The notes beneath the pieces are model-generated. The model ran no database searches. It was not told the DNA's origin and was given only the letters and a program-made list of their open reading frames with translations. The translations under genes and the position numbers were made by a program. From contig OY970280.1 of the NCBI GenBank assembly GCA_963715865.1, positions 1,632,001-1,696,000 of the forward strand: a stretch of 64,000 bases of DNA, written 5' to 3'. The stretch is from Candidatus Bathyarchaeota archaeon (GTDB lineage Archaea; Thermoproteota; Bathyarchaeia; Bathyarchaeales; Bathycorpusculaceae). This document shows positions 45,314 through 53,895 of this stretch, piece after piece (the stretch's first letter is position 1; every line of letters starts with the position of its first letter).

Positions 45314-46468
45314 ATGACCACCCCAGACATAATTGAAAAAATTCTCGCGAAAAACCCAGAAGTTAGCCGAGAACAAATTCTCGAAAAATTGCGAGCTGAA
45401 AAATCCAGAACAGGCGGTCTACTCGGTGATGAAACGCTTCTGAGGTTAATTGCCGCTAAATACGGCGTTGAAGTGCAGCAAAACACAATTCAAAACAACG
45501 GAAACTTATCGACAAGCCGTTTATTCGCTGGCTTAAACGATGTTACAGTAGCGGGTCGCTTAATTGCGGTTTTTCCAGCGCGAACTTTCGAGGGAGAAAA
45601 ATCTGGTAAATTCGCAACTTTAATGGTCGCAGATAACGATGGCATTCTGCGGGTGGTGCTGTGGAATGACAAGGCTGATTTGGTTGAAAAGGGCGAGATG
45701 AAAGTTGGACAGGCAGTTCGGCTGCTTCATGGGTACACGCGAGAGGATCATTATGGCAAAGTAGAGTTGCATCTTGGCGGCAAAAGCCAAATTGAAGTTG
45801 AGCCCCAAGAGAAAACAAGTGAATACTTAGCCTTCGATAAGTTTGCTACAAAAATAGGTTCTCTAAATAAAACGTCTGGGAATGTGCATCTTTCTGGCAC
45901 TGTAAAAGCGGTTTTAGGCTTAACCAAGTTCACCCGAAGTGATCAAAGCGATGGAACAGTCATGCGATTCACTTTAGCGGATGATTCTGGAGAAGTGACG
46001 GCGGTTGCTTGGAATGAAAAAGCCTTAGAGTTAGAAAAAACCCTCAAAGCGAACGCGTATTTGCAATTGGGTAACGCTAAAGTGAAAGAAGCCCAAAATG
46101 GCGGCATAGAAGTTCACGTTGACTTCACCAGTTTTGTTAATGTTCAAGCTGCCGCTTTGCAGTTGACGAAAATAGCAAGCTTAACTGAGAACCAAAGCGC
46201 CAACGTTGAAGGCGTAGTTTCAACGGTTCCTGAAAGCAAAGAAGTAACCACAGCGAAAGGCGAAACCGTGAAGCTGACGGTTTTTGGGTTAAAAGACGAC
46301 TCTGGCGCTGTTCAGGTTTCGGCTTGGCGGCAACATGCTGAAGCGCTTAATGGGTTAAAGGTTGGTGACAAGTTGCTTTTGGAAAATGCTTATGTGAAAA
46401 AGGGGTTTGGGAATAAAATGGAGCTATCTACCCGAAGTGCAACGGTTGTCTCAGTTATGCCGCCTTGA
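45314..46468 (+). CDS. rpa: Replication protein A / multi-OB-fold ssDNA-binding protein
   Basis: Three OB folds (ADNDGILRVVLWN, ADDSGEVTAVAWN, KDDSGAVQVSAW). Confidence 0.88.
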   Translation: MTTPDIIEKILAKNPEVSREQILEKLRAEKSRTGGLLGDETLLRLIAAKYGVEVQQNTIQNNGNLSTSRLFAGLNDVTVAGRLIAVFPARTFEGEKSGKFATLMVADNDGILRVVLWNDKADLVEKGEMKVGQAVRLLHGYTREDHYGKVELHLGGKSQIEVEPQEKTSEYLAFDKFATKIGSLNKTSGNVHLSGTVKAVLGLTKFTRSDQSDGTVMRFTLADDSGEVTAVAWNEKALELEKTLKANAYLQLGNAKVKEAQNGGIEVHVDFTSFVNVQAAALQLTKIASLTENQSANVEGVVSTVPESKEVTTAKGETVKLTVFGLKDDSGAVQVSAWRQHAEALNGLKVGDKLLLENAYVKKGFGNKMELSTRSATVVSVMPP

Positions 46469-47480
46469 GTTTTGCCGCTATGGCGTTTGCCATGTCGCTG
46501 GTTGATGCTGAACCGCCTAAATCTGCCGTTCTCACCTTGCCTTCGTTTAGCACGCTTATCACTGCTTTTTCGATTTTAGCTGCGCCTGCTTTTTCGCCAA
46601 GGTAATCCAGCATCATTGAGCCTGCCATAATGGTGGCTATGGGATTAACCCTGTTCATACCCGTGTATTTGGGCGCTGAACCGTGGACAGGCTCAAACAT
46701 GCCGTATGTTTCGCCGATGTTTGCTCCTGCCGCTAAGCCTAAACTTCCCGTAACCTGCGCCGCCTCATCCGAAAGTATGTCGCCGAAAAGGTTAGTTGTA
46801 ACAATCACATCGTAGGCTTCGGGCTTTTTAATTAGTTGCATGGTTGCAGCATCAATGTGCAAGTCATCAACGGTCACGTCAGGATACTTTTGCTGGGCTT
46901 CTTTAACGGCGTCTTTGAAGATGCCATCGGTTATTCTTAGAATGTTGCCTTTGTGCACGTAGGTTAAGTGTTTTCTGCGCTGAGAAGCAAGCTTAAACGC
47001 GAAATTGGCTATTTTCAATGAAGCTTCCCTTGTGATTATTCTTAGGGCTATGCCGACGCCTGGAGCAAGGAGAGATTCTGCGCCCGAGTATAAGCCTTCT
47101 GTATTCTCGCGGACAACGACTAAGTCTATGTTTGGTTTTAAGGCTTCAACGCTTGGAAAGCTTCGGCATGGACGCACGTTTGCATAGAGATTGAAAATTT
47201 TGCGGAGTGTCACGGCTACGCTTACTGGTGCACCTGGCTCTTCAGGCGTAGTCATTGGTCCTTTCAGGCAAGCGCTGGTTTGCTTTATCAGCTCTAGTGT
47301 TTCTTTGGGCAGGTTGGTGCCGTATTGGGCTATGCAGTGGTATCCTGCTTCGCCGTAAAGAAAGTTAAGTTTGAAATGTGATTTTTCTTGGATAGCTTGG
47401 AGGACTTTTACGGTTGCTTCTGTTACTTCTGGTCCGATGCCGTCGCCTTTAAGGACGGCTATGTTGTAAGTTTTAGTCAT
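46455..47480 (-). CDS. Isocitrate/isopropylmalate dehydrogenase family protein (LeuB/AksF-like)
   Basis: GDGIGPEV, NLYANVRP, RENTEGLY, HKGNI, EPVHGSAP. Confidence 0.93.
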   Translation of the reverse strand: MTKTYNIAVLKGDGIGPEVTEATVKVLQAIQEKSHFKLNFLYGEAGYHCIAQYGTNLPKETLELIKQTSACLKGPMTTPEEPGAPVSVAVTLRKIFNLYANVRPCRSFPSVEALKPNIDLVVVRENTEGLYSGAESLLAPGVGIALRIITREASLKIANFAFKLASQRRKHLTYVHKGNILRITDGIFKDAVKEAQQKYPDVTVDDLHIDAATMQLIKKPEAYDVIVTTNLFGDILSDEAAQVTGSLGLAAGANIGETYGMFEPVHGSAPKYTGMNRVNPIATIMAGSMMLDYLGEKAGAAKIEKAVISVLNEGKVRTADLGGSASTSDMANAIAAKLKAA

Positions 47481-47567
47481 TTTGGTTGCCTTCTTGTTTC
47501 TGGTTTTGTAAATAGTGTTTTTGCTTATCAGCATTCCTGTTGACTTTTTCCTAAAAATGAAGTTTCA

Positions 47568-48078: not shown

Positions 48079-49436
48079 TTATGAATTATAATTACTTATC
48101 CCTATAGTTTGGGACTTATTATCCATATTTTTGAAGCTTCCGAAGCGTTTAGGCTTCCTGTAGAAATGCATCGTAATTCCGTTGAATGTAGCTTCATCAT
48201 ATTTTGTCCAGCCAGCCTTTCCTAAAGCACGAATCTCTTCAACTGTTGTTACAACGGTTTCCTCATAATCTTCCTCTTTGAACTCGATAGTATGCACATA
48301 TTTCTGCGTGCTCTTCCACGACTTATGCCTCAGCAATCTTGCGATAACAACAGCATTCCCATTCGAATAGTACGCTATCATAGAGCCGCCCCAATGACGG
48401 AACGATTTAAAACTGATCTGTAGCAATGCAGGATTCTGGAATTTTGCGGCAGCCTTTACGACGAAGCGCTGCAAGGCATACATAAGCAGTCCGATAGGTC
48501 ATTGGAAAAATCCGTTTGTTTTCCCTAGGCAAAGCATTCAACATGCAGGTCAAACGCATCGACAACTCGTATTTACCAGGGTAATGGAACTTCACTGGAT
48601 GATTAATACTGAACACATTATCCTTGAGGTCAATCCATTCAGCATCAAGAATCTCTGACGGATCAGCAAAAGTCTCTTTAAGGCACAGCAGAAAAGTAGC
48701 CATACGCTTACTCGCAGCACTAATAAGCAAATCAAGGTCTTTCTCATCAGGCACAATGATAGTAGCTTCCCTCTGACGATACAGCGGACGCTGCCAAACA
48801 ATCCCCTCCATCTGACAAAACGCATCATAAGCACACACCGCCAGCATTTTCATACTGTCACTCCAAGGCTCACCATTCTTCTTTTTCTGCTTAGCAATTA
48901 CCATCTTCACATTTTCAGAGTCCAACAGGTCAGCGCCATCACCGACAAGATGCGTCAGAATATCAGGGTACGTTATATCTTCATCAAAACCATTACGCTC
49001 CAAGTACGCCATGAATTTTGTAATCAAGCCACGCACAGCTTCAGGTAACAGGTCCAGATGCTTCAGTTTTCTTCTTGTCTCCCGCAACAGTCTTTAATTC
49101 TGCTGCAGAGGTCAAATTTTTCGCTCCCAAAGCGCATATTTGGCGTTTAGAAGCTAAGGCACTGGACGTATTTAATGACCTTTCAGAACTTTCTTGTAAC
49201 GGTGGTGACCCTTTAAGGGTCGGTCTCTCGCTAAAACGGAATCCGCAATCCCTGCAAAGCCAACGCTGAACACTAGATTTATCACTCCTATAACGCAGGC
49301 CATCACGATAAACCTTCGTCACCTTAGGACTGCAACTGGGGCATAGGGGGCTGGCGCCATCACTAGCCAACTTGCCCAAACCAACACTGCCAAATACACG
49401 CTCTTGAGCAAGACCAACCATTCCCTCCCCAGCCAT
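48079..49436 (-). pseudogene. int: Tyrosine integrase with N-terminal Zn ribbon, split by two frameshifts
   Basis: CPSC...WLCRDCG; core in 48407-49087; catalytic FRHW...LLRHKSWKSTQKY in 48079-48483. Confidence 0.88.
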
Positions 49437-49437
49437 C

Positions 49438-49605
49438 TTAACCCTCCGTAAATACGCGACCGTTCTCTTCAGCCAAATCCATCAATTCTTTGCGTTTAGC
49501 AGCTTCCTTAAGGCGTCTATCACATGGTCCACAATAATTAACAAACCGAGAAACGACGTCACCGCATTCTCGGCAGTGATGATGCTCAGGGACGCCTTCA
49601 GCCAA
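49438..49605 (-). CDS. 55-aa zinc-finger protein (not in ORF track), candidate recombination directionality factor
   Basis: MAEGVPEHHHCRECG...NYCGPCDRRLKEAAKRKE; overlaps RAMP stop, ends 1 nt before integrase start. Confidence 0.7.
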   Translation of the reverse strand: MAEGVPEHHHCRECGDVVSRFVNYCGPCDRRLKEAAKRKELMDLAEENGRVFTEG

Positions 49606-50248
49606 CAGTTTCACCTAACTCGCCTTTTGGACCTACAGAAGAATCCACGGTGACGGCGGCGCCTTCAGCGGCAGCTACTTCTTGACCATCATAGGTGAAG
49701 CTGACAACTTCGAAAGTTCCAAACGAGCCCTTATGCTGAGGCCTATAATCCAGCAAACCCATCCGGACACCCGCATCTTCCAAAATTTCTTTCAGCGTAG
49801 CCTCGATGCCTTCAGGCAGCCACTTAACATTATAGACAAGCCTAAACTTTGCACTCCATTGCAATAGTTTCGCTCTGCCTTTAAGAACCCGCTGCGACTG
49901 AATCACAACCGCCCGCTCATCAACCACGTACTGATCCGTACCCAAAGGAATCTTCTCAGGCTCCACACGCATCGTACCAGCAAGCAAACTCGAAAGCGAA
50001 ACCCTATGAACCCTGTACTGCTTAGCCGTATTGATAAGCATGCTCTGCACGCATTCCTGAGGAATGTAAAGCTGGTTTTTGCCGTTGATCACTGCCATGT
50101 AAGCGCTGTTCTTTGCATCGTTCTCTGTACTATAGTTCTGCGTCTTCATTTTACTTTTACTTTTCAAACTTTCCGGATTCAACCGGTTCATTAGCAAGGG
50201 CGTTAAGCCCTTAATTTCAACATCTATTTTTTTAAAGTTTTGACTCAT
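49598..50248 (-). CDS. Stand-alone Cas7/RAMP-like protein
   Basis: N-terminal strand IKGLTPLLMN, LYIPQECVQSML (YIP-SxKG-like), C-terminal Gly-rich loop GVRMGLLDYRPQHKGSFGTFEV. Confidence 0.75.
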   Translation of the reverse strand: MSQNFKKIDVEIKGLTPLLMNRLNPESLKSKSKMKTQNYSTENDAKNSAYMAVINGKNQLYIPQECVQSMLINTAKQYRVHRVSLSSLLAGTMRVEPEKIPLGTDQYVVDERAVVIQSQRVLKGRAKLLQWSAKFRLVYNVKWLPEGIEATLKEILEDAGVRMGLLDYRPQHKGSFGTFEVVSFTYDGQEVAAAEGAAVTVDSSVGPKGELGETVG

Positions 50249-51288
50249 TTTTGTAACCTCACGTTACCATACCTGAGAGCACTGTAGCTAACGGCGCCCC
50301 GCCTTCCCTCACTAAACCAAAATAGCGGCTTACCATGCCTCACAATACATCGCATCACCAAGCCAGGCATCACTGAACTCAACCTAACTGGACACCGCAA
50401 AACATGACCTAACCGCGATGATACCAAGGAATACCACGCATTACGCGACAGGACAGTACCAAGCCAAACTTGACCCCGCCTTAATAACGCCAAAGAACAC
50501 TTCGCCTTGCTGTACCTCACCACTGCTAACCACAATGAAAGCAAAGATTGCAGCAACCGTGCCAAACCGCAACTCACAAAACCCCGCTTGACATTGCCAA
50601 ACCTCAATAAAACCATGCCAAGCCTTGCATAACCGTACTTCACAGGACCAAACTTCGCCACGCCGTAGAGTGCCTCGCGACTCCAAGCCACGCAACGCCG
50701 TAATAACGCCAAACCATGCAAAACCATACCGTGCAGTACACCAACCCGCTCCACGATACCAAACAGGGCCTCTCCAAACCACGATAACACTTTACCACAC
50801 AAAACCAAGCCCCGCACCACAGATCCCCACGCAACGCAACAGGACCTCGCTAAGCCACAATAGCACCTAACCGTAGAGAACAAAGCACCACTTGACCCAA
50901 CAGAACCGGACTCCACTCCGCTACACCATAATAAAAGCTTGGCTTGCCTTGCTTCACCCAACCGGACCGTTCCCTGCCATAATGAAAGCTTAGAGAAACT
51001 ATCCTCGCAAAGCCGTACCTTACGATACCTAACCGGACAGGACAGAATAGTGCCATGCAATACTAAACCTCGCAACGCCTCAATAATAGCAAACCTAGCA
51101 AACCTTACTTTACTCAACCTAGCAGTACAGGGCCTCACAAGACCTAGAAACACAAGACCAGACCTAAGAATACACTGCCGGGCACCACTACACACCACAG
51201 GACCATACCTGACATCAATAGCGCCACACCTTACCTTAGAGGACCGGGCAACACCGCATCTTACCCCACGACACTTGACCCTAAACAT
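50245..51288 (-). other. Stop-free 347-codon ORF spanning the whole array
   Basis: ATG at 51288 overlaps ParB-like stop; TGA overlaps RAMP ATG (ATGA); G/R/V/L/C-rich low-complexity product. Confidence 0.55.
50256..51282 (-). ncRNA. Pentameric NN-GGY repeat array, putative multi-guide RNA precursor
   Basis: ~185-190 in-phase 5-mers (plus strand RCC-nn, e.g. gccgt acctt acgat accta accgg acagg), 12 AT-rich separators, directly upstream of RAMP gene. Confidence 0.8.
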
Positions 51289-52033
51289 GAAAACGCAACC
51301 TCTCAAAATCCAAATGCGCCCGATTAACCAACTCTTTAATGACAGGATCATCCAGCGGAAAACGCCCCGACTCCGCCAGACTACAAAACAGCACCAAAGC
51401 GTTCTTCAGCTCCACAAGCTCACGGCCACTCAAACCAGGCTGAACCTTCCCATTCTTGGAATCCACATGAAACCGCTTGCCGCATGGCGCCGTCAAAGTC
51501 ACAATAGGCGCAGCAGACTCACGGTAAATCTCAGCAGCCGGAACATGCACAAGCGCCACGATATCTTTCACGTCAAATTTGAACTTTTTAAGCCGAGCAA
51601 TGTTATCCTTAAGCTCCACGTCGCTGAAACCCTTGCCATGGCCACTATTAAGCCTCACCGCCTCAGCAAACAACTCAGCCTCACTAGAAAACGGCAACTC
51701 AGAACATTCCGCATACTCAACCTTGCGAAGCTTCCGAGAACTAAACCGATGAACACCATCAACAAGAATCTTCTGACCCTTGAAAACGCCAACCTTCAAA
51801 GTTGGAAAAACACAACCCGCATCCAAAGCCCTGGCATAATTTTCAACAACCCTCTGATCAATCTCCTTACGCGGATAAAGACTCCAATCAAAAACCAGAT
51901 CAGCAAGCTTCTCAATACGAACTGGCGCCCTATCCCAATCCTTAAACGCAAAACCAGCAGCTGGCTTAACCTCAACGCTCTTTTGCGGAGCAGGCGGCAT
52001 ATAAACAACTTTACCAGCAACAGGAGACTTCAA
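51281..52033 (-). CDS. ParB/Srx-like domain protein
   Basis: LYPR, ILVDGVHR, AVRLNSGHG motifs. Confidence 0.8.
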   Translation of the reverse strand: MKSPVAGKVVYMPPAPQKSVEVKPAAGFAFKDWDRAPVRIEKLADLVFDWSLYPRKEIDQRVVENYARALDAGCVFPTLKVGVFKGQKILVDGVHRFSSRKLRKVEYAECSELPFSSEAELFAEAVRLNSGHGKGFSDVELKDNIARLKKFKFDVKDIVALVHVPAAEIYRESAAPIVTLTAPCGKRFHVDSKNGKVQPGLSGRELVELKNALVLFCSLAESGRFPLDDPVIKELVNRAHLDFERLRFHV

Positions 52034-52242
52034 CTAGACGCCTCCAGCTTTGGCTTTTTCAACGGTATAAAAACAACCGGGTGCTTATCCAACCGACTAA
52101 AAATACACCTGTAACCCTCAGCTTCAAGGGCAGTCTTCCAAGCAGCATCGAACTCTGGCTTCTGAATAACTAGGCACTCTCCATACGGCGTCACATCTTT
52201 AGGCGGACCAAAACGCGACTTAAGCTCATCAACCGAAACCAT
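52030..52242 (-). CDS. Viral hypothetical protein
   Basis: 70 aa, GGAGG RBS, coupled overlaps. Confidence 0.7.
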   Translation of the reverse strand: MVSVDELKSRFGPPKDVTPYGECLVIQKPEFDAAWKTALEAEGYRCIFSRLDKHPVVFIPLKKPKLEASS

Positions 52243-52422
52243 CTAAGCCGGAACCTCCAATGAGCCAAAAAATAAATCATGCCTCTTTTTTTTGAGAAGT
52301 TTAACTGTGTTCCTTAATGCTTTGTTGTCTTTGTGAAGCTGTGATATCAAGTTGCAGTTATCTTTGATGCTACTATTGATAATTGCCAAGTCTTTGCTGA
52401 TTTGCTGCAATTCCTCAGTCAA
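52243..52422 (-). CDS. 59-aa coiled-coil viral protein (not in ORF track)
   Basis: MTEELQQISKDLAIINSSIKD...; TTGA overlap with upstream stop; GGAGG RBS. Confidence 0.6.
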   Translation of the reverse strand: MTEELQQISKDLAIINSSIKDNCNLISQLHKDNKALRNTVKLLKKKRHDLFFGSLEVPA

Positions 52423-52811: not shown

Positions 52812-53042
52812 TCATTTCTCAGGTCCCTCTATGATTTTGTCTAGTTTCTTCTGAGCGTAAGCTTCAATCCTGACAGTAACATTATGCCCTAACGGGTACT
52901 CCTGGTACAGTGCGGAACTCTCGCTCTTAATAGACAACTTCATTTTCGGGTCACTGCATTCCAGCGTAACCTTGAACACTGGCAATTCAGCGGCGTTCTG
53001 GCTTTTCGTATGACTGCGTACAATCATGTCATATTCAGTCAA
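52812..53042 (-). CDS. Viral hypothetical protein
   Basis: 76 aa, overlapping neighbours. Confidence 0.65.
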   Translation of the reverse strand: MTEYDMIVRSHTKSQNAAELPVFKVTLECSDPKMKLSIKSESSALYQEYPLGHNVTVRIEAYAQKKLDKIIEGPEK

Positions 53043-53895
53043 GCTTCTTCACCTCTGTTTTTCTCGGTTTATTTTGTAAGCGATAGAACTCTCTGATTTT
53101 TTCAAAGATTACATTACGCAACTTGGCATCGACAGCATCGCGCTCAGGCTTCCACTTGGCATCGACAGCATCGAGCTCAGCGTTCCACTTGGCATAGACA
53201 GCATCGCGCTCAGGCTTCCACTTGGCATCGACAGCATCGCGCTCAGGCTTCCACTTGGCATCGACAGCATCGCGCTCAGGCTTCCACTTGGCATAGACAG
53301 CATCGCGCTCAGCGTTCCACTTGGCATAGACAGCATCGCGCTCAGGCTTCCACTTGGCATCGACAGCATCGAGCTCAGCGTTCCACTTGGCATAGACAGC
53401 ATCGCGCTCAGCGTTCCACTTGGCATAGACAGCATCGCGCTCAGGCTTCCACTTGGCATAGACAGCATCGAGCTCAGCGTTCCACTTGGCATAGACAGCA
53501 TCGAGCTCAGGCTTCCACTTGGCATCGACAGCATCGAGCTCAGCGTTCCACTTGGCATAGACAGCATCGAGTTCAGCGTAATATCTCAACAAAAGCTCTT
53601 TTGAAATGCCGTTAGGATCTTGATTCTTTAGCAACCGCACAGATCGACAAACACATTTCTTGTTCTCATCACTCCAAGCCTCAATTCCATAAGCCTCAGC
53701 GAAAAACACTTGACAATCAGAGTTAAGCCAGTCCCGTGGGTCCATCGTTAAATGAAAACCCCGACTGCACATCGACAAATTGCCTTTCACAATATATTTC
53801 TTGCCAAGCTTCCAGGTCTGATGACCACCGTTGTAGCTCTGCATGTTCCGCAGGACTTTGAAAAGAATCACAGGTTTTTCTTTTTTATCAGTCAT
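53035..53895 (-). CDS. Viral protein with globular N-terminus and 11-aa tandem repeats
   Basis: GNLSMCSRGFH...KCVCRSVRL N-domain; E(L/R)DAV(Y/D)AKW(NA/KP) x13.7. Confidence 0.85.
   Translation of the reverse strand: MTDKKEKPVILFKVLRNMQSYNGGHQTWKLGKKYIVKGNLSMCSRGFHLTMDPRDWLNSDCQVFFAEAYGIEAWSDENKKCVCRSVRLLKNQDPNGISKELLLRYYAELDAVYAKWNAELDAVDAKWKPELDAVYAKWNAELDAVYAKWKPERDAVYAKWNAERDAVYAKWNAELDAVDAKWKPERDAVYAKWNAERDAVYAKWKPERDAVDAKWKPERDAVDAKWKPERDAVYAKWNAELDAVDAKWKPERDAVDAKLRNVIFEKIREFYRLQNKPRKTEVKKLD
53122..53574 (-). repeat. 33-bp coding tandem repeat, 13 full plus 1 partial copy
   Basis: 453 bp = 13x33 + 24. Confidence 0.95.

Follow-up and report, generated by a model that had tools for sequence, protein, structure and literature searches.

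In a 64,000-nucleotide stretch of the genome of a Candidatus Bathyarchaeota archaeon (assembly GCA_963715865.1, contig OY970280.1, positions 1,632,001 to 1,696,000 of the forward strand; hereafter the window, from whose first letter positions are counted), a tract of about 1 kb carried by a Bathyarchaeia provirus appears to be a multi-guide RNA array of a Viral Interference Programmable Repeat (VIPR) system, a reading to which we assign a probability of roughly 0.8. The array lies directly upstream of a gene for a 216-aa RAMP protein and on the same strand, and to the published VIPR systems the locus adds an archaeal array that is embedded in an open reading frame (ORF) and devoid of tails, together with a set of guides aimed at motifs of DNA-modification enzymes. 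A preliminary description of this DNA had already pointed to decodable guide blocks, which holds, and the neighbouring gene encodes a Vipr-type RAMP; on the other hand, the system is not an unknown one, since VIPR was published in 2026, and the conserved stop-free ORF was missing from that account of the array.

VIPR was first described in 2026 preprints, which depict vrRNAs of 9-16 YNNGG repeats covered by one Vipr protomer per repeat (bioRxiv 10.64898/2026.04.26.720920). In this account, each protomer holds the constant K-G-Y bases out of reach and exposes the two variable ones (NN), which pair with DNA in such a way that every third target base, usually a codon wobble position, is skipped (10.64898/2026.04.26.720920). 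The two central features of the locus are the following:

50249..51285, minus strand: VIPR array of about 200 pentamers nnKGY in RNA sense (YNNKG in the notation of the preprint)
49598..50248, minus strand: vipr, encoding a 216-aa RAMP protein (Vipr homolog), with profile, fold and phrog_4652 matches

The periodicity of the array is evident from the autocorrelation of positions 50256-51282, which reaches 0.42-0.49 at lag 5, and about 0.38-0.42 when lags 5, 10 and 15 are taken together, as compared to about 0.25 at other lags, and no second 5-nt-periodic stretch of such strength occurs within the window. In each pentamer, position 4 is a G in 76-90% of the repeats, position 5 is a pyrimidine and position 3 is a K, although this first G of the GGY trinucleotide is relaxed (G 50%, U 30%, A 15%). 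The tract thus comprises far more than four tandem units with a GGY-related trinucleotide and a variable dinucleotide on the vipr strand, and its nnKGY units resemble the 'YNNNG' or degenerate variants named in the VIPR preprints. Besides the pentamers, no direct repeats were found in the array region, and Rfam gave no family above noise in 48800-52300, with neither hammerheads nor known tails, while the minimum free energy fold of the array was uninformative. No structured 3′ tail or pseudoknot of the type II VIPR layout was found, and this layout is regarded as absent because the spacing elements measure only 5-11 nt and match no Rfam family.

The protein encoded next to the array supports the same assignment. 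A profile of eight orthologs matched the SUSP1 Vipr protein (PDB 36pp, chain 36pp_D) with an E value of 8.5e-5, over residues 28-185 against 35-191. Residues R125, D167, Y168 and R169 align with R138, D177, W178 and R179 of SUSP1 Vipr and are invariant in the eight orthologs; in SUSP1 the thumb Arg and the D-aromatic-R of the G-loop hold the second G and the pyrimidine (bioRxiv 10.64898/2026.04.26.720927), whereas H17, which contacts the first G, falls outside the aligned part. The predicted model of the protein (pLDDT 60) retrieved only Cas7-family structures among the top 50 Foldseek matches and reached Z 9.1 to Csm3 (6ae2_B) with VIA; no Pfam match was obtained. With a minimal RAMP beside the array and the trinucleotide-gripping residues in place, the neighbouring protein is, as judged from its sequence, a Vipr-type RAMP and the locus a VIPR system. 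The N-terminal motif of the protein reads PLLM-N (residue N21), and PLLM-H in the homolog of Pseudomonas phage LESphi2. Should this LESphi2 His be the counterpart of H17 in SUSP1 Vipr, the replacement by Asn would be consistent with the relaxed first G (K) of the archaeal array.

Further evidence for guide function comes from decoding. Each block was read as NNx, with a 1-nt skip, and compared with the 2.35-Mb host genome, using 120 shuffled blocks and skips of 0, 2 and 3 nt as controls. The preliminary description had proposed decoding with 1-nt gaps, and its three lists of variable dinucleotides (50612-50701, 50865-50929 and 51223-51282) were correct; the proposal itself was borne out by three blocks that match the host genome at 23, 22 and 21 of 24 bases. 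The maximum was 20 of 24 in the 120 shuffled blocks and 19 of 24 with skips of 0, 2 and 3 nt, and matches above background appeared only under the 1-nt skip, that is, with one skipped base per repeat. All three matches lie inside ORFs. The NN fall there on the first two codon positions, the wobble base is the one skipped, and the guide reads in coding sense; such a guide cannot base-pair with the mRNA, so that its partner must be the template strand of the DNA. The blocks that decode to known protein motifs are:

50784..50858, minus strand: guide block of 15 repeats, V-F/L-D-P-C-C-G-S-G-G, motif I of HsdM-type N6 methyltransferases
50987..51081, minus strand: guide block of 19 repeats, D-L-I-I-T-S-P-P-Y, motif IV of N4/N6 methyltransferases
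50612..50701, minus strand: guide block of 18 repeats, V-V-F-V-D-T-T-x-D/E-F-P-E-T-Y, PAPS-reductase motif (DTG/PET)
50703..50782, minus strand: guide block of 16 repeats, V-L-D-P-F-x-G-G-G-T-T, motif I of PF01555-type methyltransferases
50423..50482, minus strand: guide block of 12 repeats, G-Q-F-F-T-P-R, N6_Mtase motif, nucleotide-identical in four loci inspected
50860..50934, minus strand: guide block of 15 repeats, G-G-P-S/P-C-Q-G-F-S, motif IV of C5 cytosine methyltransferases
51218..51275, minus strand: 3′ half of the first block, Q-V-G-N-A-V-P-P, motif X of C5 methyltransferases

Block 50784-50858 matches host hsdM (L015:9670-9714; 23 of 24 bases, site VFDPCCGSGG), with its first 10 NN perfect; block 50987-51081 matches a host N6_N4 methyltransferase gene (L016:9387-9443; 22 of 24, site VDLVITSPPY), and block 50612-50701 a host gene with PAPS_reduct and 4Fe-4S domains (L017:9678-9731; 21 of 24, site VVFLDTT..LPET). 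The best host match of block 50703-50782 (20 of 24 bases) does not exceed the shuffled controls, and block 50860-50934 has no match in the host genome. When 301 Bathyarchaeia genomes were scanned at 3 mismatches, the GQFFTPR guide had one match, EGQFFTPRNVI, and the reversed control pattern had none. A further motif decoded here is LDP-Y. Guides for these motifs are found again, in varying order, in each of the eight related arrays, the C5 motif IV guide (GGP-CQ-FS) among them, together with guides for NPPF and SGGKDS. For blocks 50936-50985, 50556-50610, 50484-50538, 50322-50421 and 50246-50320, the decoded strings were matched to no protein family. One guide decoding to Y-x-F-G-P-Y-S-S-D-L-F (window 50322-50421; equivalents in L003-L010) is present in seven of the eight arrays, again with no family matched, which is also the case for the strings Y-V-T-S/R-L-F-T-C/W-A and F/L-I/M-P-D/E-C/W-D/E.

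The guides would accordingly be written at the level of amino-acid motifs, with NN corresponding to codon positions 1 and 2 of conserved catalytic motifs, and the predicted target classes would comprise N6, N4/N6 and C5 methyltransferases, PAPS-reductase/DndC-like proteins and PP-loop ATPases. All three host targets stand at the head of gene clusters: hsdM opens the type I restriction-modification (R-M) operon hsdM-hsdS-hsdR, the N6_N4 methyltransferase gene a cluster with Csa1/Cas4-like and BrxC/D-like genes, and the PAPS-reductase gene a cluster with a PLD nuclease and an AAA/HerA-like ATPase. This position on the first genes of host restriction or defence operons suggests transcriptional silencing of R-M systems, or of the protective methylases of rivals. 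Between hsdM and hsdS, the host operon also contains a gene with a TBP (TATA-binding protein) domain (L015:8084-8647; host genome 557083-557646, minus strand).

A second question is how the guides are delimited. The preliminary description had divided the array at twelve short separators, taken as processing sites or filament caps. All twelve strings are present on the plus strand where it had placed them, each corresponds to a +1-nt slip of the 5-nt register, and they coincide with +1-nt slips placed by a Viterbi phase tracker that was blind to the separators. The tracker placed three further slips, at 50555, 51099 and 51323. In RNA order, the boundaries are:

51217..51222, minus strand: separator GCUAUU (short class)
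51147..51151, minus strand: in-phase broken repeat gtUUC without slip, dividing a 23-pentamer block into two motif units
51082..51092, minus strand: separator UUGCUAUUAUU (long class)
50981..50991, minus strand: separator AAGCUUUCAUU (long class)
50930..50940, minus strand: separator AAGCUUUUAUU (long class)
50859..50864, minus strand: separator GCUAUU
50783..50788, minus strand: separator GUUAUC
50702..50707, minus strand: separator GUUAUU
50606..50611, minus strand: separator UUUAUU
50534..50542, minus strand: separator GCUUUCAUU
50483..50488, minus strand: separator GUUAUU, preceding the guide conserved in four loci inspected
50417..50422, minus strand: separator AUCAUC
50321..50326, minus strand: separator GCUAUU

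Both the short and the long class recur in seven related loci, in agreement with the two classes originally distinguished. The blocks, given as 8-25 pentamers, measured 10-23 in phase plus two fragments of three pentamers, and the number of guides has to be raised from about 13 to some 14-16 units because some guides are bounded by a broken repeat that stays in phase. Positions 51286-51351, the 5′ part of the first block, are the 3′ end of the upstream gene and lie outside the array. Over eight loci, 67 slips showed a consensus of nn-YAU plus one extra pyrimidine (U or C), or GGU-U-uYAUY, and their distribution over the three codon phases is even (19, 26 and 22), which indicates that the separators are features of the nucleotide sequence and not of a peptide. 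The invariant G is lacking in 38% of the first and 58% of the last pentamers of the blocks, as compared to 13% of the inner ones. As guide boundaries, the separators have comparative support: they are broken repeats without the Vipr-gripped G, target matches and decoded motifs start 0-1 NN after them, and in every one of the four loci that share a guide, this guide directly follows a separator. They are not obligatory, however, and not every boundary carries one with the +1 slip; long in-phase blocks of related arrays (L004, L007 and L009), as well as one here, contain several guides parted only by in-phase broken repeats (gtUUC, gtUAU), so the extra base appears to be optional.

In the proposed mechanism, some 14-16 guides of 10-23 repeats each would be covered by Vipr, one protomer on each pentamer as in the published mechanism. 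A broken repeat, in which the G is replaced (nnYAU, usually with one extra U that shifts the register by +1), would delimit the guides; lacking the G, it would not be gripped by Vipr, the filament would end there, and the gap would leave naked A/U-rich RNA open to host RNases. That a repeat without G cannot be gripped and breaks the filament is the most economical reading of the separators, from which we infer cleavage at these sites. Alternatively, they could be neutral scars of guide gain, duplication or recombination, neither caps nor cleavage sites, with the ends of guides set otherwise, by filament length or by RNase trimming of RNA that Vipr leaves uncovered. Such an origin would account for adjoining guides in L004, L007 and L009 that have no +1 slip between them, for two near-identical long separators 51 nt apart, suggestive of a block duplication, and for the 'staggered arrays' of the preprint, which lack a dedicated spacer. 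Neutral scars would not be expected, however, to keep the consensus of YAU plus pyrimidine among arrays only about 55-65% nucleotide-identical between loci, nor to lose the invariant G specifically at block ends, nor to precede the GQFFTPR guide in all four loci inspected, and we consider them unlikely.

Several observations weigh against the VIPR interpretation of the array as a whole. The whole-block NN identity to host genes is only 71-83%, and just one block reaches the 80% criterion of the preprint over its full length. No target was found for about half of the blocks, and exact 1-nt-skip patterns of two blocks (22 and 24 specified bases) gave no match among viral contigs, a scan that was probably too strict, since natural targets tolerate mismatches. 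In related arrays several guides follow one another with no +1 slip between them, as happens at one boundary here, the Vipr model is of moderate confidence only (pLDDT 60), and silencing by an archaeal Vipr would be a prediction only. A search of sequencing runs for the sequence listed DNA metagenomes, each with a small share of it, and no RNA run.

The array has an unusual second property, namely that it is contained as a whole in a single reading frame:

50245..51351, minus strand: stop-free ORF of 368 codons containing the whole array; gene-caller start ATG at 51288 (347 aa)

Internal stops are absent from this frame, whereas the two remaining sense frames have 24 each. The ORF and vipr overlap in ATGA, and the internal ATG of the ORF (51288) overlaps the stop of the upstream gene as ATGTTTAG. 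Wherever the free pyrimidine would start TAA, TAG or TGA, it is a C in 66 of 72 cases and never a T (0 of 72), whereas at the other two codon positions it is a T in 167 of 282; TA-G is likewise avoided through the choice of the K base. The open frame is therefore actively kept, C being picked over T at the free pyrimidine where a T would create a stop. All eight loci found through the downstream gene, a search unbiased toward the ORF, contain a periodic tract of 750-1100 nt with one open frame. Of 32 arrays of at least 600 nt found through the RAMP gene, 16 are spanned by one frame over at least 90% of their length, 8 over 50-90% and the remaining 8 over less than 50%, which means that the ORF is favoured in this clade but not indispensable.

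A frame kept in this way could indicate that the main product is a fast-evolving basic protein of pentapeptide-type repeats (x-V/A-R-x-G), the 5-nt period being a by-product of its origin from a pentanucleotide repeat. The stop-free frame itself, its persistence in half of the long arrays, found independently of it, and its coupling to both neighbours would agree with this idea, as would the fact that gene callers predict the ORF and that its 'family' amounts to 85 cluster representatives. However, the substitutions show no codon-position signature: whichever codon position is considered, the fraction of sites that differ between homologous arrays is 0.14-0.17 for the G and about 0.4 for the other pentamer positions, and it tracks the pentamer and not the codon, whereas vipr shows the usual pattern (0.20, 0.13 and 0.48). 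Where it falls on the first or second codon position, the invariant G is kept in 76% and 78% of the repeats, respectively, and where it falls on the wobble base, in 85-90%; omega is 0.5-0.86 for the array ORF against 0.07-0.17 for vipr. The constraint on the array is thus one that, to judge from these comparisons, acts at the nucleotide level. The ORF product has no Pfam, PHROG, NCBIfam or PADLOC match, its AlphaFold model (27 homologs) is helical or disordered and of low scores (pLDDT 53.5, pTM 0.29) with no beta-helix, the frame is broken in 8 of the 32 relatives, and phage arrays are short and intergenic, all of which makes a protein as main product very improbable. A true pentapeptide-repeat protein was also rejected, with no Pfam match at E <= 0.1 and no right-handed quadrilateral beta-helix in the model. 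With pentapeptide-repeat and Ohno-type ORFs the array shares the conversion of a 5-nt DNA period into a 5-residue peptide period with an A/V-x-hydrophobic-G-like pattern; the difference from pentapeptide-repeat proteins lies in its conservation by pentamer and not by codon position. The eukaryote-like proteins P0065 and P0072, whose (HGTAR)n repeats are translated (GGCAC)n microsatellites, match the array-ORF profile, and any GGY-rich pentamer repeat yields the same peptide pattern.

Returning to the RNA array, its frame raises the possibility of translation. As a tentative proposal, which we hold to be rather doubtful, the array would be translated in this archaeal clade, its stop-free state being part of the function of the system, and its guides would form an anti-restriction repertoire at motif level. 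By reading no more than codon positions 1 and 2 of universal catalytic motifs, a single provirus could then silence entire classes of methyltransferase-led defence operons, among them the type I R-M operon of its host, starting at the first gene, or else the protective methylases that rival viruses carry. If the array were translated, the transit of ribosomes would shield a G/U-rich transcript of 1 kb from premature termination or, alternatively, would time the loading of Vipr and couple the expression of vap, array and vipr.

Distant vipr homologs are also found in Pseudomonas, Mycobacterium and Gordonia phages. In the four phage loci examined (LESphi2, Brocalys, UmaThurman and Medea1), the strongest lag-5 signal lies beside the gene and consists of nnGGC repeats on the same strand; the LESphi2 homolog is 39% identical to a Felixounavirus coliphage protein. 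In the Gordonia phage UmaThurman (NC_031249), the nnGGC array (L013:4583-4905) is annotated as gp40, a 'hypothetical protein' of 107 aa, and public annotations thus hide vrRNA arrays as ORFs. The equivalent array of Mycobacterium phage Brocalys (L012:3565-3825) is unannotated intergenic DNA, and LESphi2 (OQ594955) carries three short nnGGC sub-arrays upstream of its Vipr homolog (L011:3590-3905), parted by hairpin-like spacers of about 60 nt that may be the structured tails of separate vrRNAs.

On its other side, the archaeal array is flanked by a further gene of the provirus:

51281..52033, minus strand: upstream gene of 250 aa, ParB-like (phrog_1033, E 3.4e-8), a candidate accessory (vap) gene

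It is found in synteny in L003 and L005, with 52-83% identity. Its position directly upstream, together with a 5-bp period equal to half a helical turn, could speak for a cis-acting DNA element, such as a centromere or a packaging site to which the neighbouring ParB-like protein binds. However, it is the RAMP gene and not ParB that accompanies the array in viruses of bacteria and archaea, the strand of GGY sense is always that of vipr, and reading the NN by the published rule for RNA guides yields gene motifs, so that a role of this kind is hardly credible. A ParB centromere, G-quadruplex or telomere-like DNA and a TRAP-like RNA-binding site were all dropped given the link to the RAMP gene and the decoding. 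Further upstream, the ORF at 53035-53895 contains a 33-nt tandem repeat (53121-53576, minus strand; 13.8 copies, 92% matching) and encodes a product of 286 aa with 11-residue repeats and weak tape-measure and apolipoprotein-like matches. Downstream of vipr, integrase-like fragments (48079-49087 and 46455-47534; a weak Phage_integrase match and Zn-ribbon ORFs) adjoin an isopropylmalate dehydrogenase gene and seem to mark the end of the provirus, about 1.5 kb beyond vipr.

The locus has some implications for the study of VIPR systems, known so far mostly from intergenic regions of phages. A 1-kb array of many guides is hidden here in an annotated 'hypothetical protein', and at least 85 such protein clusters exist in public databases. 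A later VIPR survey covered intergenic regions only, and surveys of this kind would be expected to miss arrays inside annotated ORFs. With broken repeats as punctuation, the locus offers a simple way to lay out many guides in one array that has no structured tails, and the rule of stop avoidance is a clean example of two codes on one sequence. The predicted targets, catalytic motifs at the head of host defence operons, would moreover extend VIPR from competition among viruses to anti-restriction or to an attack on the protective methylases of rivals.

As compared to known systems, the RAMP fold with thumb and G-loop is shared with the crRNA-Cas7 filaments of class 1 CRISPR (Csm3, Cmr4, Cas7), as are the use of one protomer per fixed RNA increment and periodic base flipping, which for VIPR are taken from the preprints. 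The increment is nevertheless 5 nt for VIPR and not 6 nt, and only two of every five bases pair; a repeat-spacer array and adaptation genes are absent from the locus, as are Cas6, Cas5, Cas10 and Cas11, and Pfam, PADLOC and NCBIfam gave no Cas matches for the neighbours, sequence models of Cas7 included, which places the locus outside class 1 CRISPR-Cas. Among the VIPR systems themselves, the preprint names variant consensus repeats and 'staggered arrays' offset by 1 nt, the latter unconfirmed by small-RNA sequencing (10.64898/2026.04.26.720920). By the legend of fig. S18, these staggered vrRNA arrays consist of contiguous tail-less guides whose neighbours are offset or overlap by 1 nt, comparable to the +1-nt slips described here, and they may represent the same layout; that legend mentions no ORF. 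The available texts of three VIPR preprints contain no mention of an array ORF, of translation or of methyltransferase targets, and the archaeal array differs from those published there in that the whole of it can be read as a stop-free ORF, apparently coupled to the genes on both sides.

The closest relative is type II VIPR, as found in Escherichia phage SUSP1 and in a Pseudomonas fulva prophage. Both there and here, a small RAMP homologous to Vipr, with its thumb Arg and the D-aromatic-R of the G-loop conserved, is encoded by a viral or proviral element beside tandem 5-nt repeats on the same strand, each with a constant trinucleotide and a variable dinucleotide, and targets emerge only under the rule of a 1-nt skip, with the skipped base at the wobble position. 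In contrast, the first G of GGY is relaxed in the archaeal array, which forms a 1-kb tract of about 200 repeats instead of vrRNAs of about 100 nt with 9-16 repeats, and whose guides are parted by broken repeats of 5-11 nt without an invariant structured 3′ tail or pseudoknot. The array lies within a stop-free, translated-looking ORF and not in intergenic DNA, its host is an archaeon, and its predicted targets are motifs of DNA-modification enzymes, including those of host defence operons, whereas those of type II VIPR are satellites or lysogeny regulators.

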